Of a stretch of 64,000 nucleotides of DNA, positions 8,985 to 40,977 are shown piece after piece (the first letter of the stretch is position 1; the number at the start of each line of letters is the position of its first letter). The notes beneath the pieces were generated by a model. The model was not told the DNA's origin, made no database searches, and saw only the letters and a program-made list of their open reading frames with translations. This stretch comes from a bacterium (GTDB lineage: Bacteria; Bacillota; Clostridia; Christensenellales; UBA3700): the NCBI GenBank assembly GCA_963592135.1, contig CAVAVP010000031.1, positions 5,398 to 69,397 on the forward strand. The letters are read 5' to 3'. A program made the translations under genes and the position numbers.

Positions 8985-9140
8985 CGATAGATATTTGCAG
9001 GAGAAGACTTTTAGTCATCGAAGGAGTAACACTCTCAGAAGCTTATGCGTAGGACTGTAAATGGACGGCACTCCGGAGAAGCCTAAGGAAAAGGTACCGA
9101 AGTGGCAAGCGAAAGCTAATCTCTCAGGTAAAAGGACGGG
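8985..9140 (+). promoter_or_regulatory. Tandem glycine riboswitch (two aptamers)
   Basis: Aptamer 1 is GGAGAAG...CATCGAAGGAGTAA...CTCTCAG...GGACTG. Aptamer 2 is CTCCGGAGAAG...TACCGAAGTGGCAA...CTCTCAGGTAAAAGGAC. Both match the conserved GGAGA / CCGAAGGrGCAA / CUCUCAGGyAAAAGGAC cores. It sits upstream of an AGCS transporter, a classic context. Confidence 0.8.
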
Positions 9141-9167
9141 GAAAACATAAAAGAGTTTTTCGTTGTT

Positions 9168-12617: not shown

Positions 12618-12632
12618 CATATTACAATAAGA

Positions 12633-12722
12633 TTTCTGTTACTGACGGATTAGTGGAGTACCACATGGGAGCAGAAAAATATAATTAGAAAGAGAAACTT
12701 TCAGCCGACCGTCTGGGCGCAC
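12633..12722 (+). promoter_or_regulatory. ZTP (pfl motif) riboswitch
   Basis: The 5' subdomain TTCTGttaCTGACGGATTAGTGGagtaCCACATGGGAGCAGAA and the 3' pseudoknot strand CCGACCGTCTGGGCG match the ZTP consensus (GACUGrCGG...GUGG..CCAC..GGGAG // CCGnCCGyCUGGGC). It lies upstream of purine biosynthesis genes. Confidence 0.8.
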
Positions 12723-12753
12723 ATATCTATAAGAAGATAGGTGCGCCCTTTTT
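12715..12753 (+). terminator. ZTP riboswitch expression-platform terminator
   Basis: GGGCGCACATATCT / AGATAGGTGCGCCC stem plus TTTTT. The 5' arm reuses the GGGCGC of the aptamer pseudoknot strand, which is ON-switch logic. Confidence 0.7.
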
Positions 12754-31470: not shown

Positions 31471-32193
31471 TTAATTTGCTGTATATAATCTTTTATATGG
31501 GTTTGCAGAGTTTGGTTTTAACACAAAAAAATGCTCTTTCATTATTGAATTCGCGTTTAGATTAAAGTCACTTGCAAATTCTTCAATATATGTTTTTATT
31601 TCATTTAATTCATCAATGCCTGCATCTTCACAGTTTACTTGTGGAGGAAGTGGAGAAGTAATAGTTGTTCCTCTTAAAAATATTTTGCCACCATGCATGC
31701 CAACTCCTGTGAAATTTCCTACAATATCTTTATCTTGTTCAAGATTAAGAACAATTATTCTACCCCCGGCCATATACTCGCCTAAAAAAGAACCAACTTT
31801 TCCGCCAATTATAATTAAAGGAAATTTCTCCTTATATGCTTTCATATGTATGCCAGTTCTATATCCTGCATTGTTTCTTATAAATATTTTTCCGCCACGC
31901 ATGGCGTATCCAGTAGCATCACCAGCACATCCATGAACTATGATTTTTCCATCATTCATCGTATCTCCAACTGCATCTTGAACAGAACTATTAACAATTA
32001 TGTTGCATCCATCCATATATGAGGCTAGAGCATTACCAGGTACGCCATTTATAGTAATATTTTTACCATTAACTCCAGATGCTATATACCTTTGTCCTAC
32101 TATGTTATTTAAAACTATATCGCAATCATCGCTATGTCGAACGTATTCACATATTTCTTTGAAACCTAAATCTTTACAATCAATAATTTGCAT
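31471..32193 (-). CDS. Glutamate synthase GXGXG-domain subunit (GltB C-terminal domain as a separate protein)
   Basis: 240 aa of repeated G-x-G beta-helix motifs ([45 protein letters not shown]). Confidence 0.75.
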
Positions 32194-32202
32194 AAAATTC
32201 TC

Positions 32203-33708
32203 CTATTCGCCAGCGTGCATTATGCCTAGTATTTCTAATTCTTTTTCTGTCAAACCAATGCCGCGTAACATTAATCTATTGCCACGAAGAGCCTCTATAG
32301 AGTTTATCCCCATTCCGCCCATAATCTCTTTAATTTCATTAGTCCAAGCATTTATAAGATTTGTAAGTCTTACAACGCCTTCTTCAGGATTTAATCTCTT
32401 TGTCAATTCAGGTATTTGTGTTGCTATACCCCAGTTACATCTGCCTAGGTGACATGATCTACATAAATGACATCCAAGTGCCATAAGGGCAGCTGTTGCA
32501 ATATAACAAGCATCTGCACCAAGAGCTATTGCTTTAACAACATCAGAAGATGACCTTATAGAACCTCCAACAATTAAAGATACTTTATCTCTTATTCCTT
32601 CATCTCTAAGTCTTTTATCAACAGCAGCAAGTGCGAGTTCAATTGGAATTCCTACATTATCTCTAATTCTAGTAGGAGCAGCACCCGTTCCGCCTCTAAA
32701 TCCATCTATGGCAATAATATCAGCACCTGATCTTGCAACACCGGATGCTATTACTGCCACATTATGTACAGCTGCTATTTTTACAATAACGGGTTTTTTG
32801 TATTCGGAAGCTTCCTTTAGAGAGTAAACTAATTGTCTTAAATCTTCGATTGAATATATATCATGATGTGGAGCAGGAGATATTGCGTCACTGCCATGAG
32901 GAATCATTCTTGTTCTTGAAACATCTTCGCTTACTTTAGAGCCAGGTAAATGTCCACCAATTCCTGGTTTAGCGCCTTGTCCCATTTTTATTTCAATTGC
33001 AGCTCCTGCATTTAAAAAGTCTTTATTTACTCCAAAACGACCTGATGCAACTTGAACTATTGTGTTAGGACCATATTTATAAAAATCCTCATGAAGACCG
33101 CCTTCACCAGTATTATATAAAATGCCTAATTCTTCAGCAGCCTTTGCAAGGGAAGCATGCGCGTTATAACTTATAGAACCATAACTCATGGCAGAAAACA
33201 TTATAGGCGTGGATAATTCTATTTTTGGTGGTAAGTTATTTATAATTTTTCCATTTTTGTCTCTTAAAATTTCAGAAGGTTTTGCGCCTAAAAAGGTTTT
33301 AGTTTCCATTGGCTCACGAAGCGGGTCAATTGGTGGATTTGTAACTTGAGAAGCATTGATTAATATTTTATCCCAATATACCGGATAATTTTCAGGATTT
33401 CCCATTGATGACAGCAAAACACCGCCTGTTGTTGCTTGTCTATAAATTGAATTGATATTTGCGCTAGACCAGTTTGAATCCTCTCTAAATACATTGTTGG
33501 ATTTAACTATTTTAAGAGCATGTGTAGGACATAACGCAACACATCTATGACAATTTACACATTTTGTTTCATCTGCAAGCATTATATTATGTTCACTGTC
33601 AAAGGTGTGAACTTCATTTGAGCATTGAGATTCACAAAGTCTACATTTTGTACATCTATTGTCATTTCTTTCTATTTCATATTGAGGTTCAATAAGATGA
33701 ATTGCCAT
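32203..33708 (-). CDS. Glutamate synthase FMN/Fe-S domain subunit with an N-terminal 2x[4Fe-4S] ferredoxin domain
   Basis: CTKCRLCESQC and CVNCHRCVALCP, then GltB domain-2 motifs (ISPAPHHDIYSIEDL, GGTGAAP, CHLCRSCHLGRC). Confidence 0.8.
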   Translation of the reverse strand: MAIHLIEPQYEIERNDNRCTKCRLCESQCSNEVHTFDSEHNIMLADETKCVNCHRCVALCPTHALKIVKSNNVFREDSNWSSANINSIYRQATTGGVLLSSMGNPENYPVYWDKILINASQVTNPPIDPLREPMETKTFLGAKPSEILRDKNGKIINNLPPKIELSTPIMFSAMSYGSISYNAHASLAKAAEELGILYNTGEGGLHEDFYKYGPNTIVQVASGRFGVNKDFLNAGAAIEIKMGQGAKPGIGGHLPGSKVSEDVSRTRMIPHGSDAISPAPHHDIYSIEDLRQLVYSLKEASEYKKPVIVKIAAVHNVAVIASGVARSGADIIAIDGFRGGTGAAPTRIRDNVGIPIELALAAVDKRLRDEGIRDKVSLIVGGSIRSSSDVVKAIALGADACYIATAALMALGCHLCRSCHLGRCNWGIATQIPELTKRLNPEEGVVRLTNLINAWTNEIKEIMGGMGINSIEALRGNRLMLRGIGLTEKELEILGIMHAGE

Positions 33709-33709
33709 A

Positions 33710-34798
33710 TTATTTTACCTCCTTATTAACTTTAATAATTATCGCTTCTCCACCTTTAGGGTAGTATGTATTATAAGCATCAGGACATATTTGTCTAATA
33801 GCACTTTCTTCGCTAGATATATATTTCATATCGTTTTTTTCTGCTATTACCATTGAACGTAGCTTAAGTCTATCATTAAGAGCCATAAGTCCCCCAGTAA
33901 AGCCTACAATAATAGAAAAAGGTCCAGTAATTAACTGTGAAGAGAATACATTTCTTAAAAATTTTTCTTTTTCTTGTTCTTCTTTTGGCATTTTTTCAAT
34001 TGTGTCCCAAAATGGTGCGGCTATTACACCGGCTGTTTCTTTTAGTGTAAGACCCTTTTTCCTTGTTAGGTAATCAATTATGTAAGTTATAACTTCAGTG
34101 TCTGTTTGAAGTGTGCATTTATAGCCATACATTTCCATGGCTCGTTTATTTGCATCATATGAGGATATCTCGCCGTTATGGACTACAGATAAATCTAAAA
34201 GCGAAAATGGATGAGCGCCACCCCACCACCCAGGAGTATTTGTTGGGTATCTGCCATGAGCAGTAAAGGAATAACCTTCATATGAATCTAACATATAAAA
34301 TCTTCCAACATCTTCTGGAAATCCTACTGCTTTAAAAATGCCCATATTTTTCCCTGACGAAAAAATATAAGCACCATTTATTTCAGTATTAATTTTAAAA
34401 ACTGATCTAAAAACATAATCATCTTCTTTTAGTTGAGCAGCATCTAATTTTGTTTTTAGGGGAGTAACAAAGTATCTCCAAATCAGTGGTGCATCTGTAA
34501 TTTCTCTTATTTGTTTTGTAGGAATTTTAGAAAGATTTACAATATCATAGTATTCTTCTATATATTCCTCGCATTGTTTTTTTGAAAGAGAGTCTGAATA
34601 AAAAATATGAAAAGCGTAATAATCTTTATACTCTGGATATATTCCATAGGCGGCAAAACCGCCTCCAAGACCATTTGACCTATCGTGCATAACAGCTATT
34701 GATTTAATAATATCTTCGCCAGAAAATTTTCTTCCACTAGTTGAAATCATGGCAGCAACAGCACAACCGGATGGATTACGAAATTGACCCTCTAACAT
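33710..34798 (-). CDS. Glutamate synthase class II (Ntn) glutamine amidotransferase subunit
   Basis: 362 aa with an Ntn Cys after an 11-residue propeptide (..NPSG-CAV), then HGRYPTNT and HNGEI motifs. Confidence 0.75.
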   Translation of the reverse strand: MLEGQFRNPSGCAVAAMISTSGRKFSGEDIIKSIAVMHDRSNGLGGGFAAYGIYPEYKDYYAFHIFYSDSLSKKQCEEYIEEYYDIVNLSKIPTKQIREITDAPLIWRYFVTPLKTKLDAAQLKEDDYVFRSVFKINTEINGAYIFSSGKNMGIFKAVGFPEDVGRFYMLDSYEGYSFTAHGRYPTNTPGWWGGAHPFSLLDLSVVHNGEISSYDANKRAMEMYGYKCTLQTDTEVITYIIDYLTRKKGLTLKETAGVIAAPFWDTIEKMPKEEQEKEKFLRNVFSSQLITGPFSIIVGFTGGLMALNDRLKLRSMVIAEKNDMKYISSEESAIRQICPDAYNTYYPKGGEAIIIKVNKEVK

Positions 34799-34834: not shown

Positions 34835-34878
34835 AAAAAAAAATAGGCGTCAATCTTCCATATGGTTGATTGAACGCC
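34835..34878 (-). terminator. Intrinsic terminator inside the 5' leader of the split-GOGAT operon (attenuator)
   Basis: Minus strand: GGCGT(T)CAATC...GATTGACGCC followed by TATTTTTTTTT. It lies between the promoter and the RBS. Confidence 0.7.
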
Positions 34879-34910
34879 ATTGTTCGTTGTTTGATAAAAA
34901 ATATATTTTG

Positions 34911-34939
34911 ATTTTATGATTTTCAAAAACACTTGTCAA
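34911..34939 (-). promoter_or_regulatory. Promoter of the split-GOGAT/pyrG operon
   Basis: Minus strand: TTGACA, 17 nt spacer, TAAAAT. Confidence 0.6.
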
Positions 34940-35060: not shown

Positions 35061-35089
35061 TTGACACAAAAAATAAGTCTTGGTATATT
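35061..35089 (+). promoter_or_regulatory. Promoter of the type III glutamine synthetase gene
   Basis: TTGACA, 17 nt spacer, TATATT. Confidence 0.6.
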
Positions 35090-35113
35090 ATAGCCATATA
35101 AATAAGTCAGCAA

Positions 35114-35150
35114 GGCGCTGTGGATTAATGTATCCATAGTGCCCTTTTTT
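35114..35150 (+). terminator. Intrinsic terminator inside the 5' leader of the type III GS gene (attenuator)
   Basis: 12-bp stem GGCGCTGTGGAT / ATCCATAGTGCC (two G-U pairs), loop TAATGT, then CTTTTTT, about 45 nt before the ATG. Confidence 0.7.
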
Positions 35151-35195: not shown

Positions 35196-37283
35196 ATGAC
35201 AAACATTCCAGAATTATTTGGCTCAATGGTATTCAATGATTCGGTAATGAAAGAAAGATTACCTCATGAAACTTACAAAGCAATGCATAAGACCATTCAA
35301 GAAGGTCAATCATTGGATATAACAGTTGCAAATGTAGTTGCTAATGCTATGAAGGATTGGGCAATTGAAAAGGGTGCAACTCATTACACTCACTGGTTCC
35401 AACCTATGACTGGTGTTACCGCAGAAAAGCATGATAGTTTTATTTCACCAACAAAAGAGGGAAATATAATAATGGAGTTTTCTGGAAAAGAATTGATTAA
35501 AGGAGAACCAGATGCTTCATCATTCCCATCAGGAGGTTTAAGAGCAACCGCAGAAGCTCGTGGGTATACAGCCTGGGATCCAACATCTTATGCTTTTATT
35601 AAAGATAAATGTTTATGTATTCCAACAGCCTTTTGTTCATATACAGGGGAAGCCTTAGATAAAAAGACTCCACTTTTACGTTCTATGGCTGCAATTAATA
35701 AGCAAGCTTTAAGAATTTTAAAATTATTTGGAGACCCCGCAACTAAAGTTTCTACAACAGTAGGACCTGAACAAGAATATTTCTTAATTGATGAAGACAT
35801 ATACGAAAAAAGAAAAGATTTAATTTATACAGGTCGTACATTATTTGGTGCTCCAGCTCCAAAGGGGCAAGAAATGGAAGATCACTACTTTGGTGTTATT
35901 AAGCCTAGAGTTCAAGCTTTTATGGACGATTTAAATGTGGAGTGTTGGAAACTTGGTATTTTAGCAAAAACAGAGCACAACGAAGTTGCACCTGCTCAAC
36001 ATGAATTGGCTCCAATTTTCTCAACAACAAATATTGCAACAGACCATAACCAAATCTTAATGGAGTTATTACAAAAAGTTGCAAAGAAACATCACATGGT
36101 ATGTTTGCTTCATGAAAAGCCATTTGATGGAGTAAACGGTTCAGGCAAACATAATAACTGGTCTATAGGAACAGATAAAGCAAACTTATTAGAGCCAGGT
36201 GAAACACCAGCAGAAAATGCAAAATTCTTGGTATTTTTAGCTGCTGTAATTAAGGCTGTTGACGAGTATCAAGATTTACTTAGAATCTCTGTTGCATCTG
36301 CAGGAAATGACCATAGATTGGGCGCTAATGAAGCACCTCCAGCTATTGTTTCAATGTTTGTTGGTGATGAACTTCAAGCAGTACTTGATTCAATCGAAAG
36401 CGGTATTAAATATGAGGGCAAAAAGAGAGTTCAAATGAAAATTGGTGTAGATGTTTTGCCAAAGTTCCCTAAGGATACTACAGATAGAAACAGAACCTCG
36501 CCATTTGCATTTACTGGAAACAAATTTGAGTTCCGTATGGTAGGATCTGCAGATTCAATTGCTTGTGCAAATATTATGATTAATACAGCAGTGGCTGAAG
36601 AATTAAGACAATTTGCAGACGAACTTGAAAAGGCAACAGATTTCCAAACAGCGTTAAATTCATTGGTTAAAAAGACTATTAAAGAACATAAGAGAATTAT
36701 CTTTAACGGAAATGGCTATGACGATGCATGGATAAAAGAAGCAGAAAAGAGAGGACTTTTAAACTTAAAGACAACTCCTGAAGCTTTGGTTAGATATACT
36801 GATAAGAAAAATCTTGAATTATTTAAAATTCATGAAGTATATACTGAAACTGAAGTTAAGGCAAGACAAGAAATCTTATTTGAAAACTATGCAAAATTAA
36901 TCAATATTGAAGCATTAACAATGATTCAAATGGTTAAAAAGTCTATTTTGCCTGCCATATCTTCTTACTCAAAAGAAATCGCTGATACAATTTTAAAGAA
37001 GAAGGAAGCAATTAAGGATATAGATTGTTCATATGAGGAATTACAATTAAAGAAAATGTCAAAATATAGTGCAAAGATGCTTGAAGATGTTCAATCACTA
37101 GAGGCTGCTGAAAAGAAAGCATTTAGGATTGAAGAAGCACAAGATAGAGCAATGAGCTTTATGCAAGAAGTTTTACCTTTAATGTCAGCAGTTAGAGCAA
37201 GTTCAGATGCACTAGAAACTACTGTTTCTAAGAAGTGTTGGCCTTTCCCGACATACGGAGACATCTTATTCTCAGTAAAATAA
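35196..37283 (+). CDS. glnN: Glutamine synthetase type III
   Basis: 695 aa, N-terminal [32 protein letters not shown] and [16 protein letters not shown] motifs characteristic of GSIII. Confidence 0.9.
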
Positions 37284-37320
37284 AAAGAGAATAAAACTAT
37301 AATATAAAAACGCAATGGTT

Positions 37321-37356
37321 GCGAGATTTAGTTTAGGCTAAATCTCGCATTTTTTT
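37321..37356 (+). terminator. Intrinsic terminator between glnN and asnB (terminator/attenuator)
   Basis: GCGAGATTTAG / CTAAATCTCGC stem, loop TTTAGG, then ATTTTTTT. Only 33 nt remain before the asnB ATG, with no promoter in between. Confidence 0.7.
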
Positions 37357-37389: not shown

Positions 37390-38973
37390 ATGTGTTCAAT
37401 TATGGGAATCGAAGGGTATGAAATACCACTAGAGGAATTTAAAAAGAGTTTTGATAAAACTATATCAAGAGGACCAGATATGTCAAAGGTTATTGACATA
37501 GGTTTAGGATATTTAGGTTTTCATAGATTAGCAATTATGGGTCTAACAAAAGAAGGTATGCAACCAATGTCTTTAAATGATGAATATGTTGTATGCAATG
37601 GTGAAATTTATGGTTTTAGAAAAATAAAGGAAGTATTAGAAATAGAAGGATATAAATTTAAAAGCGATTCAGACTGCGAGATATTATTACCACTTTATGA
37701 AAAATATGGTGTAGAGATGTTTAAAAAATTAGATGCAGAGTTTGCTTGCATAATTTTTGATTCGAAAACAAAAGAGTTTATAGCAGCAAGAGATCCGATT
37801 GGCATAAGACCACTTTTTTATGGGTATACAAAGGGTGGAAAAATAATGTTTGCAAGTGAAGCTAAAAACTTAATGGGACTTACGGATAAAATAATGCCAT
37901 TTCCACCAGGTCATTATTATAAAAATGGAAAATTTATTTGTTATAGAGATGTAACAAAAGTGGATAAATACAACTATGATGGTTTAGAAAGTATTTGTAA
38001 GAACATTAAAGAAAAACTAATTACAGGCATCGAAAAAAGACTAGATGCTGATGCACCACTTGGGTTTTTGTTATCTGGCGGATTAGATAGTTCTCTTGTT
38101 TGCGCAGTGTCAGCAAAAATACTTGGAAAGAAAATTAAAACATACGCAATAGGTATGAGTGAAGATGCTATAGATTTAAAGTATGCAAAACAAGTTGCTG
38201 AGTATATAGGCTCTGATCATCATGAGATTATAATCACAAAAGAAGATGTTTTATCCTCACTAGAGAAAGTAGTAGAAATTCTAGGTACTTTTGATATAAC
38301 AACAATACGTGCTTCTATGGGAATGTATTTAATTTGTAAAGCAATTCATGAACAAACTGATATAAGAGTTTTGTTAACAGGTGAGATATCCGATGAATTG
38401 TTTGGATATAAATATACAGATTTTGCGCCAAATGCTGAAGAATTCCAAAAAGAATCGGTAAAAAGAGTTAAGGAATTATATATGTATGACGTGCTTCGCG
38501 CAGATAGGTGTATAAGTGTAAATTCGCTTGAAGCAAGGGTTCCTTTTGGAGATTTAGATTTTGTTGAGTATGTTATGAGTATAGATCCTGATAAAAAAAT
38601 GAATAAATATAATATGGGTAAATATTTATTAAGACATGCATTCGAAGATACGCACTGCTTGCCGGATGCTATATTGTTTAGGGATAAAGCTGCATTTTCG
38701 GATGCAGTAGGGCATTCTCTTGTAAATTATCTAAAGGCATATGCTGAAATTGTCTATACAGATGAGGAATATGAAAAATTAAGAAAGAAATATACACATG
38801 CTACACCATTTACAAAGGAATCTTTGCTTTATAGAGAAATCTTTGAGAAATACTATAAAGATCAAGGTGAAATGGTAGTAGATTTTTGGATGCCAAATAA
38901 ATCTTGGGAAGGGTGTAATGTAAACGACCCATCAGCAAGAGTACTTTCTAACTATGGCAACAGCGGAAAATAA
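37390..38973 (+). CDS. asnB: Asparagine synthase (glutamine-hydrolysing)
   Basis: MC-SIMG Ntn Cys2 and the PP-loop FLLSGGLDSS. Confidence 0.85.
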   Translation: MCSIMGIEGYEIPLEEFKKSFDKTISRGPDMSKVIDIGLGYLGFHRLAIMGLTKEGMQPMSLNDEYVVCNGEIYGFRKIKEVLEIEGYKFKSDSDCEILLPLYEKYGVEMFKKLDAEFACIIFDSKTKEFIAARDPIGIRPLFYGYTKGGKIMFASEAKNLMGLTDKIMPFPPGHYYKNGKFICYRDVTKVDKYNYDGLESICKNIKEKLITGIEKRLDADAPLGFLLSGGLDSSLVCAVSAKILGKKIKTYAIGMSEDAIDLKYAKQVAEYIGSDHHEIIITKEDVLSSLEKVVEILGTFDITTIRASMGMYLICKAIHEQTDIRVLLTGEISDELFGYKYTDFAPNAEEFQKESVKRVKELYMYDVLRADRCISVNSLEARVPFGDLDFVEYVMSIDPDKKMNKYNMGKYLLRHAFEDTHCLPDAILFRDKAAFSDAVGHSLVNYLKAYAEIVYTDEEYEKLRKKYTHATPFTKESLLYREIFEKYYKDQGEMVVDFWMPNKSWEGCNVNDPSARVLSNYGNSGK

Positions 38974-38996: not shown

Positions 38997-39040
38997 TACC
39001 GACGCTCAGTTCTCTCCCATGATGAGCGCCGGTACTTTTA
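38997..39040 (+). terminator. Terminator after asnB
   Basis: TACCGACGCTCA / TGAGCGCCGGTA stem (1 mismatch) plus CTTTT. Confidence 0.55.
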
Positions 39041-39065: not shown

Positions 39066-39094
39066 TTGAATAGTGAATTGCTTTTTATTATAAT
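39066..39094 (+). promoter_or_regulatory. Promoter of the GS-like / ANTAR operon
   Basis: TTGAAT, 17 nt spacer, TATAAT, 28 nt before the ATG at 39123. There is no leader terminator here. Confidence 0.6.
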
Positions 39095-39122: not shown

Positions 39123-40403
39123 ATGAATCGTTCGGAAAGAGATGTATTAGATTTTATACAAGATAATGATGTTAAGTTTGTAAAACTAGCTTTTTGCGAT
39201 GCACTTGGAAACTTAAAAAACGTATCAATTTACGCAGATGAATTAGAAAATATTTTTGAAAAAGGTATAGCAATAGAAGAGGAAGCTTTTGATGGGATAG
39301 CTTCATATGAAAATGGAGATATTAGATTATTTCCAGACCCATCAACATTACACCTTCTTCCATGGAGACCACAACAAGGTGCAGTTGTTAGAATGTATTG
39401 TACACTAAAGCATCCGGATGGAACTATAGCGGAATGTGATGGTAGAGCTTTACTTAAAGCTGCTCAAGAAAAGTTGGCATCACTTGGATATACTTGCGCA
39501 ATAGGTTCAGATTGTGATTTTTACTTGTTTGAACTTGATGAAAAAGGAAAACCTACATCTATTCCTTATGATAATGCAGGTTATTTAGATTCAGCCCCAC
39601 TTGATAAAGGCGAAAATGTAAGAAGAGAAATATGCTTTACACTAGAAACTTTTGGGATTAGACCATCTTCTTCTCATCATGAAAAAGGACCAGGACAAAA
39701 TGAAATCTTATTTAACTATAATGATGCTCTTTTAGCTGCGGATGATTTGATTTCGTTTAAATCGACAGTAAAGTCAGTGGCAGAAAAGAATGGATTATAT
39801 GCATCATTTCTCCCAAAGCCTTTAAACAATGAAGAGGGTAGTGCTCTTCGTGTTAAGTTTAGGTTGAAAAAAGATGGAGTAAATTTCCCAACAGATTCTA
39901 AAGAAGTAAAAAGTTTTTTAGCTGGCATTTTGAATAAAATATCTGAAATAACACTATTTTTAAATCCTACACCAAACTCTTATGATAGATTTAAATTTGA
40001 TAAATCACCTAAATATATAGGTTGGGCAGAACAAAAATACAACCAAGTAATAAGAGTAAGTGGACACAGGGTTGCAGTTTATTCGGCAGACCCATCTTGT
40101 AATCCATATGTTGCTTATGCGCTTTTATTGTATGCTGGTGCAGAAGGACTCGAGAAAAATATGGAACTCCCATTGCCTATAGGAGAATCTATACAAGAAG
40201 TTAATAAAAATTTATATAAATCTTTGCCACTAAGTTTAGAGCAAGCAATAAAGGAGGCTAAAGAAAGTAATTTCCTTAAAGAATATATTCCATTAAAGCA
40301 TTTAGAACAATTTATAGCCTATAAAGAAAACGAACTAGAAGACTATAACATGGCTTCAAATAAAGAGAAATTTTTAAATGATAAATATTTTGGAAAGATA
40401 TAG
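39123..40403 (+). CDS. Glutamine synthetase type I-like protein with degenerate catalytic residues (probable pseudoenzyme/sensor)
   Basis: It aligns along its whole length with GlnA (FDG, HHEKGPGQNEI, NSYDRF, DPSCNPY). The catalytic motifs are altered: GSDCDFYLF, EGSALRV, YNQVIRVS, RVAVYSAD. Start set at ATG 39123 (ACGAGGTG RBS), not the TTG at 39063. Confidence 0.7.
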   Translation: MNRSERDVLDFIQDNDVKFVKLAFCDALGNLKNVSIYADELENIFEKGIAIEEEAFDGIASYENGDIRLFPDPSTLHLLPWRPQQGAVVRMYCTLKHPDGTIAECDGRALLKAAQEKLASLGYTCAIGSDCDFYLFELDEKGKPTSIPYDNAGYLDSAPLDKGENVRREICFTLETFGIRPSSSHHEKGPGQNEILFNYNDALLAADDLISFKSTVKSVAEKNGLYASFLPKPLNNEEGSALRVKFRLKKDGVNFPTDSKEVKSFLAGILNKISEITLFLNPTPNSYDRFKFDKSPKYIGWAEQKYNQVIRVSGHRVAVYSADPSCNPYVAYALLLYAGAEGLEKNMELPLPIGESIQEVNKNLYKSLPLSLEQAIKEAKESNFLKEYIPLKHLEQFIAYKENELEDYNMASNKEKFLNDKYFGKI

Positions 40404-40413
40404 GGAAAATTAA

Positions 40414-40977
40414 ATGGCAGATCTTCTATATGTATCAGTATCTCCAATACCTACAGAGTTGGCACAGCTTTTAAAAAGAGCTGGGTATCATTCATACGAT
40501 TTAGCAAAATCTGCAGGGGAGGCTAGAAGATTAATAAATTTGCGTCAATATGACGAAATAATTATTGCATCGCCACTTCCTGATGAGCTTGGAGATAAAC
40601 TTGCTCTAGATATAGCATTAGATACATCATCAAATATAATTTTTATAGCAAAACCTGAGGTTGTTAGCTTAATTGAGTTTAAGATGGAAAGCAATGGAAT
40701 TGTAGTATTTGCAAAGCCAGTGTCAGGAAGTTTGCTTTATAAGGTTTTAACCATTTTTAAAGCGGTAGATAGGAGAATGAGTGTTGTCTTAGAAAAGAAT
40801 AAAAAGCTTGAAGATAGGATTGAGGAAATTAAACTTGTATCACGTGCAAAAATGATATTAATGTCAAAAATGGGAATAAGTGAAGAAGAGGCACATAAAC
40901 ATTTAGATAAAACAGCAAAAGATCAAAGAAAAACAAAAAGGGAAATTGCACTTGCAATTATTCAAATGTATGAATAG
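40414..40977 (+). CDS. ANTAR-domain RNA-binding antiterminator with a pseudo-receiver domain (NitR-like)
   Basis: C-terminal ANTAR (LVSRAKMILMSKMGISEEEAHKHLDKTAKDQRKTKREIALAII). The N-terminal receiver fold lacks the DD pocket and the phospho-Asp (VSVSPIP, IIIASPLPD). Confidence 0.8.
   Translation: MADLLYVSVSPIPTELAQLLKRAGYHSYDLAKSAGEARRLINLRQYDEIIIASPLPDELGDKLALDIALDTSSNIIFIAKPEVVSLIEFKMESNGIVVFAKPVSGSLLYKVLTIFKAVDRRMSVVLEKNKKLEDRIEEIKLVSRAKMILMSKMGISEEEAHKHLDKTAKDQRKTKREIALAIIQMYE

Follow-up and report, generated by a model that had tools for sequence, protein, structure and literature searches.

The stretch of DNA analysed here (the window) comprises 64 kb of low-GC (approx. 32%) Clostridia DNA and covers only this part of the genome. 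Its subject is a pair of adjacent genes on the forward strand, one for a glutamine synthetase (GS)-like protein of 426 aa (39123..40403) and one for an ANTAR protein of 187 aa (40414..40977), which a preliminary description, made from the letters alone, had proposed to be a catalytically degenerate GS and the antiterminator that it gates as a nitrogen sensor. The gene positions given there are correct: the GS-like gene runs from an ATG, supported by homologues beginning with MNRSE.., to a stop codon at 40401-40403, and the ATG of the ANTAR gene lies at 40414, which leaves a gap of 10 nt. The GS-like protein is 96% identical to a protein from a metagenome-assembled genome (MAG) labelled ‘uncultured Christensenella sp.’. 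Upstream of the pair are archaeal-type glutamate synthase (glt, GOGAT) genes (GATase_2, GltB-like and GXGXG; 31471..34798, reverse strand), a type III GS gene (GSIII, glnN; 35196..37283, forward) and asnB for the glutamine-hydrolysing asparagine synthase B (37390..38973, forward), all three being predicted regulated targets. GSIII, two genes upstream of the GS-like gene, is colinear with B. fragilis GSIII (E = 5.6e-202) with every motif present and the catalytic motifs intact, just as had been described, and is probably the working GS.

A terminator-like hairpin without an AAxGGC hairpin follows asnB (38997..39034, forward), and the GS-like/ANTAR unit has its own sigma-70-like promoter (TTGAAT-17-TATAAT; 39066..39094, forward); a scan of the window found no attenuator hairpin between this promoter and the GS-like ATG. 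Having its own promoter and no attenuator, the GS-like gene of the window appears as the partner of the regulator and not as its target. On the 3' side, the ATG of ispE (40970) lies inside the last codons of the ANTAR gene (overlap 40966-40977), and because of this overlap it is probable that the essential isoprenoid gene ispE shares a transcript with the regulatory pair and is coupled to it in translation, so that the promoter would drive all three genes.

The GS-like protein has the complete fold of a type I GS (GS-I), i.e., a beta-grasp N domain and a catalytic domain (Pfam Gln-synt_N, E = 2.4e-15, and Gln-synt_C, E = 5.6e-72; GS matches in the PDB, E = 1e-87), and its AlphaFold model, with a predicted local distance difference test (pLDDT) of 91.7, superposes on the GS of M. 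mazei (GS-I-alpha) with a template modelling (TM) score of 0.92. Against the NCBIfam GlnA equivalog TIGR00653 it reaches 279 bits, which is below the cut-off of 429.15. Residues were called from an alignment to the solved, active M. mazei GS and 120 homologues, and their positions are given in E. coli GS numbering, in what we take to be the correct assignment. From this alignment it can be seen that the protein carries the substitutions E129D, E131D, H269R, E327K, R339Y, E357A and R359Y, and retains E212, E220, R321, R344 and D50'. The n2 metal ligands E129, H269 and E357 read D, R and A in the window protein and are variable across its clade, the n1 ligand E131 is Asp with E212 and E220 retained, both phosphate and transition-state arginines (R339 and R359) are tyrosines, and the flap Glu327 is a lysine.

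All motif strings quoted in the preliminary description (GSDCDFYLF, EGSALR, KYNQVIRVS, RVAVYSADPSCNPY, SSHHEKGPGQNEI and NSYDRF) are present, and its view that the catalytic residues are replaced holds for H269R, E357A, R339Y, R359Y and E327K, but goes too far for E129 and E131, where the change from Glu to Asp is conservative, so that the carboxylates are still there, and for the n1 site, which is largely kept. As read from the alignment, the protein has lost its n2 metal site together with the phosphate-binding arginines and still has most of the n1 and amino-acid side, and it is very probable that the 426-aa protein is without GS activity.

For the comparison with other genomes, 98 loci were gathered, and the first 94 of them plus the window were classified, resulting in 71 non-redundant GS-I genes. 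The nearest intact relatives of the GS-like protein are clostridial GS-I proteins of 438-439 aa, e.g., of Acetivibrio, whose locus L009/L010 falls in the same clade as the window pair. The distance tree has the topology (L091/L061/L053)+(L011,(L007,(L004,(L002,(L001,window))))), and it is a neighbour-joining tree only, from which the number of independent losses cannot be read. In the outer branches of the window clade, the losses are confined to R339 and E357 (plus R359 or E129), and the loss of H269 begins at L007 and runs inward; on this branching order, the loss is graded and the window clade stands at its end. Additionally, contigs from the human gut yielded a separate group with E129S/E327L/R339Y/E357I, and further degenerate ANTAR-linked GS-I groups carry E327L/R339N/E357Q/R359I or E129D/R339G/E357Q.

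The degenerate ANTAR-linked lineages found in this way are L054, L056, L058, L060, L077, L079 and L080 (with approx. 15 near-identical loci), L053, L061 and L091, and L011/L012, and many such lineages come from human-gut metagenomes. Since these other lineages also have degenerate active sites, the label ‘glutamine synthetase’ on many genes of gut Clostridia may not denote an enzyme, which is of consequence for the annotation of gut metagenomes. It was also observed that P0082, P0120 and approx. 30 other ‘intact’ members, Acetivibrio included, have the flap Glu327 replaced by Ser, Lys or Arg, which may hint that catalysis was compromised before the metal ligands were lost. GSIII genes are common in the GS-I/ANTAR loci and would supply enzymatic redundancy.

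The GS-like gene is under strong purifying selection and is functional rather than decaying. In comparison with L001 (the 96% relative), the ratio of nonsynonymous to synonymous substitution rates (dN/dS) is 0.041 at a dS of 0.57, and that of the ANTAR gene is 0.078; a full-length intact reading frame is found in 15 cluster representatives with 57-96% identity to the GS-like protein, and of the 151 positions with a conservation of 95% or more in the intact sister clade, the degenerate clade retains 105. The 46 altered positions concentrate in the active-site funnel, i.e., in the E129/E131 strand, the GSGxH loop, the flap, the NRS...IRIP segment, the ExR strand and the Asp50' loop of the N domain. 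At another 32 positions the degenerate clade has fixed residues of its own; 11 of these positions fall within residues 51-68, and this loop seems to have been remodelled and then conserved, as would be the case for a new binding surface or pocket. It could be argued that a protein whose catalytic residues are gone, in a genome with a working GSIII, is a functionless decaying remnant; with dN/dS values of 0.04-0.1, full-length frames down to 57% identity and a confident predicted structure, this is hardly credible, and a decaying pseudogene was rejected on dN/dS.

Alternatively, the protein could be a ligase that still depends on ATP but has changed its chemistry (a gamma-glutamyl ligase or similar), working through Asp129/Asp131 and the Arg or Lys at position 269. 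In its favour, the fold, the n1 ligands, R321 and R344 are retained, 32 conserved residues are specific to the clade, and other GS-like enzyme families exist (NCBIfam GGputSyn matches, far below the cut-off). However, H269, E357, R339, R359 and E327 are all gone, and the substitutes differ even among close relatives in the clade (R, M or K for H269; A, T or H for E357; Y or N for R359), which argues for relaxed constraint and not for new chemistry, as there is no fixed new catalytic set. To our knowledge, the known GS-like ligases retain both metal sites, and altogether we regard a ligase as improbable.

The 187-aa protein contains the ANTAR domain PF03861 (E = 7.8e-15, covering 2-54 of 54). 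Its AlphaFold model (pLDDT 94) consists of a five-stranded receiver fold, a helix at 105-153 and the ANTAR bundle, which is the architecture of AmiR, NasT, EutV and PdtaR, i.e., a (beta-alpha)5 receiver, a long helix and a C-terminal ANTAR domain; the top structural matches are EutV (RNA-bound, TM score 0.73), Rv1626 and AmiR. In comparison with Rv1626, the phospho-acceptor Asp is replaced by Ala52, the acidic EDE by SVS and the beta4 Thr by Ala, with the beta5 Lys-Pro retained, so the reading of this domain as a pseudo-receiver was right, and with neither acceptor Asp nor acidic pair the protein does not belong to the phosphorylation-dependent response regulators. The acceptor position is Asn in approx. 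56 of 67 ANTAR partners and in at least 90% of a 66-sequence ANTAR-family alignment (hallmark xINxPLxDExG), and it is other than Asp in approx. 90% of the partners, including those beside catalytically intact GS. No histidine kinase was found in 11 Pfam-annotated GS-I/ANTAR neighbourhoods, and there is no other sensor gene that turns up repeatedly in the annotated neighbourhoods.

The conservation of the gene pair, a check suggested together with the first claim, had a clear outcome. An ANTAR open reading frame (ORF) of approx. 189 aa lies directly 3' of GS-I in 67 of the 68 non-redundant loci with sufficient downstream sequence, the sole exception being L043 (5992-8415), where carA/carB take the place of the ANTAR gene behind a GS-I that carries E129K and E212K. 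The remaining neighbours (glt genes, pheA, dapF, carAB and asnB) differ between loci. The reverse look-up, starting from the ANTAR family, gave a GS-I immediately upstream in all three cases, which belong to distant taxa (Desulfitobacterium, a MAG labelled Treponema, and Marasmitruncus). The family comprises at least 1,450 protein clusters in a profile search, which was used because a single-sequence ANTAR search gave 5 matches; a genome-contig scan with the GS-like protein alone gave 3 loci. Judged from these loci, the pairing and the pseudo-receiver are features of the whole NitR-type family, also present beside intact GS and therefore not peculiar to the pseudoenzyme. In this respect, the pair of the preliminary description follows the rule, and only the dead enzyme is special.

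Two side observations concern this family. In L097, a GS-I/ANTAR/asnB cluster lies on a contig whose ANTAR protein carries a Treponema MAG label, which suggests horizontal transfer or mis-binning. In P0241 (L095:34-939), a single ORF of 301 aa, the GS beta-grasp N domain is in frame with a complete NitR-type ANTAR protein and the catalytic domain is absent; this may be a real deletion-fusion, or an artefact of assembly, given that it comes from one Logan contig of only 1,986 bp, and such a GS-ANTAR fusion was not relied on.

The default fold of the leaders of the glt, GSIII and asnB genes is an intrinsic terminator (z from -4.4 to -6.0), so the three leader terminators of the preliminary description stand, and in each the 5' arm starts inside a small hairpin which we consider a candidate ANTAR site. 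In the glt leader (reverse strand), the promoter TTGACA-17-TAAAAT (34911..34939) is followed by the hairpin GAAC-AATGGC-GTTC (34872..34885), a hexaloop with A1 and G4, and by the terminator (34836..34878; GGCGTTCAATC...GATTGACGCC and a T9 run; z = -4.37). In the GSIII leader (forward strand), the promoter is TTGACA-17-TATATT (35061..35089), the candidate hairpin is the pentaloop variant CAGC-AAGGC-GCTG (35108..35120), and the 5' arm of the terminator (35114..35150; z = -5.97) begins within it. The asnB leader (forward strand) contains the heptaloop variant CGC-AATGGTT-GCG (37311..37323), whose 3' arm is overlapped by the terminator (37320..37356; z = -4.46), and its orthologue in L002 shows compensatory changes.

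A consensus element consisting of a 4-bp stem and an AAAGGC loop overlapping an intrinsic terminator was found upstream of glt, GSIII, asnB, asnA, carB, purA or GS-I in dozens of other loci, and in some intact lineages an attenuator precedes the GS-I/ANTAR operon itself. The distance from the sigma-70-type -10 box to the hairpin is always 8-20 nt (approx. 35 leaders, from L007-L090 and the window). When motif-plus-terminator sites were picked without a pairing requirement, all four flank pairs formed in 16 of 70 distinct sequences, with 8 different stems, as against 3.7% in the control with permuted arms. Among 35 hexaloop instances, chosen on the inner three pairs, the outermost pair also forms in all except three TAAC/GTTC stems. 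The glt leader of the window (AAUGGC) and the family consensus (AAAGGC) have what defines an ANTAR site, namely a hexaloop with A1 and G4 and a short stem in overlap with a terminator. The three leaders of the window are, in our view, likely to be under the control of the ANTAR protein, and they suggest a single-hairpin variant of the ANTAR RNA site.

Several searches around these leaders gave nothing. No conserved terminator loop was found, that of L001, the 96% relative, being already a different one; taken by themselves as short motifs, CAAWGGYK and GCAAGGCGC show no enrichment in the window, structure and position being required; and a relaxed scan for 3-bp hairpins was discarded as largely noise, at the same level as in shuffled sequence. 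At Rfam gathering thresholds there was no match in the leaders, the only matches of the window being a ZMP/ZTP riboswitch (12628-12725, forward, 54.6 bits) and a glycine riboswitch (9063-9149, forward, 46.7 bits), which lie elsewhere. In other loci, the element was seen before carB, asnA and purA (L025:7981, L027:3136, L028:5822, L031:4549 and L033:4523), so the regulon would extend past GS/GOGAT to other ammonia- or glutamine-consuming steps.

To hypothesize on the function of the pair, we read it as a derived clostridial GlnA-NitR module in which the GS-like protein is the nitrogen sensor that gates the NitR-type antiterminator, and we would give this reading an even chance. It is favoured because a protein which is no longer an enzyme nor, in the window, an attenuator target nevertheless stays under selection and fixed beside the ANTAR gene. 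The non-phosphorylatable ANTAR protein would bind the promoter-proximal 4-bp hairpin with its AA(A/U)GGC loop in the nascent glt, GSIII and asnB leaders, and since the GGC of the loop and the 3' arm of the hairpin are the start of the terminator, binding would block termination. The GS-like protein, probably still an oligomer, would combine the GS fold, the n1 metal and the amino-acid side of the pocket with the remodelled, conserved Asp50' loop, and would have lost glutamine synthesis and still read the nitrogen status through glutamine, glutamate or a related ligand. In nitrogen-replete cells it would hold the ANTAR protein via the pseudo-receiver, and under nitrogen limitation it would release it, with consequent transcription of GSIII, glutamate synthase and AsnB. 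The sensor/antiterminator idea of the preliminary description has thus gained strong comparative support from the near-universal two-way synteny, the purifying selection and the ANTAR-type leader hairpin; the contact between the two proteins, the ligand and the sign of regulation are what we infer.

The main competing explanation is that another sensor (PII, a directly bound small molecule, or a partner encoded at another locus) controls the ANTAR protein at the three leaders, and that the GS-like protein has an unrelated, non-catalytic role, e.g., as a modulator of GSIII or some other enzyme or as a buffer for an amino acid, its adjacency being inherited glnA-nitR synteny. That synteny is indeed older than the loss of catalysis, the attenuator before the GS-I/ANTAR operon in some intact lineages fits a simple relation of regulator and target, and the contact between the proteins is derived by analogy in our reading. 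Yet the pair is kept in 67 of 68 loci where every other neighbour changes, it persists after the GS has ceased to be an enzyme and, in the window, a target, and neither a recurrent sensor gene in the annotated neighbourhoods nor a PII gene in the window offers itself instead. Control by another sensor therefore seems rather unlikely to us, and the GS-like protein remains our preferred candidate.

Some observations weigh against this preference and should be put beside it. Beside an intact GS, adjacency could merely reflect a regulator located next to its own target, and a PII-type sensor, of which the 64-kb window has no gene, could sit elsewhere in the genome. The equivalent of Arg62, which we take to be the glutamine-feedback arginine of B. 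subtilis GS, is missing from the alignment in the entire clade, which bears on the ligand. With regard to the RNA, the GSIII (AAGGC) and asnB (AAUGGUU) loops of the window have 5 and 7 nt, not 6, and a second hairpin (P1) upstream was looked for in the approx. 35 leaders and not found, when canonical ANTAR sites have two; with the -10 box so close upstream of the single hairpin, there is no space for P1. A dimeric ANTAR protein would here have to use a single hairpin at the very 5' end of the transcript, published sites being dual-hairpin.

On a larger scale, we tentatively propose that in many Clostridia and some other anaerobes, GS-I is primarily the nitrogen-sensing subunit of a GS-NitR switch acting on a single promoter-proximal hairpin, and that, with GSIII supplying catalysis, this sensor has lost its enzymatic activity more than once. 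If this is true, a trigger enzyme has been caught at several stages on its way to a pure pseudoenzyme sensor. A catalysis-free GS copy, fixed beside an antiterminator under strong selection, separates the regulatory role of GS from the enzymatic one. The literature searched names no signal that controls the NitR-type antiterminators of Clostridia; with the GS-like protein there is now a likely sensor to name, which opens the question to direct tests. As the family spans cellulolytic and human-gut Clostridia, it also bears on nitrogen control in biofuel strains.

Among known systems, vertebrate lengsin has kept a GS-I-like fold without GS activity, and it is eukaryotic, structural and has no link to an RNA-binding regulator. 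In the GS-TnrA/GlnR system of B. subtilis, a GS-I-alpha is a nitrogen sensor by direct contact, and our model superposes on the GS-TnrA and GS-GlnR-peptide structures with TM scores of approx. 0.9; unlike in the window, the partners there are DNA-binding proteins of the MerR type and the GS is active, and the window protein lacks the feedback arginine presumed to be Arg62. In AmiC-AmiR (P. aeruginosa) and NasS-NasT (Paracoccus denitrificans), a non-phosphorylated, receiver-like ANTAR protein is sequestered by an adjacent ligand-binding partner (PMC3369931, PMC12591593, PMC3795266). The pseudo-receiver ANTAR protein is the common feature, AmiR being also a structural match, but the AmiC and NasS sensors have a periplasmic-binding-protein fold, whereas the candidate sensor of the window is a GS-fold protein, probably oligomeric, whose complex with the ANTAR protein is a predicted one. 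The canonical ANTAR RNA site of Ramesh et al. (2012) has two hairpins (P1 and P2), with an A1 and G4 hexaloop and a short stem overlapping the terminator (PMC3369931). The EutV/EutW site shares the hexaloop and the overlapping stem with our leaders, and RNA-bound EutV is the top structural match; it differs in its two hairpins and in activation by phosphorylation, compared with a single 5'-end hairpin and no phospho-acceptor in the window.

The closest system is NitR, the ANTAR protein beside glnA in C. saccharobutylicum, for which induction of GS/GOGAT by antitermination under nitrogen limitation was reported, with a mechanism ‘not fully understood’ (PMC6316151, citing Stutz 2007), and the pair Clo1313_2031/2030 of C. 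thermocellum has the same gene arrangement (PMC4676874). In the literature searched, GlnA/GS is nowhere proposed as the sensor that partners NitR, nor is a GS pseudoenzyme described from any bacterium; the pseudoenzyme version of the pair had been called apparently undescribed, and this agrees with our search, with the correction that the window is one of several degenerate ANTAR-linked lineages. Both GlnA-NitR and the window have a GS-I gene followed directly by a gene for a receiver-ANTAR protein of approx. 190 aa, with terminator leaders before the GS and GOGAT genes. The difference is in the GS itself, which in GlnA-NitR is complete in its catalytic residues and regarded as an enzyme, and which in the window has neither the residues for phosphoryl transfer nor an attenuator before its gene.

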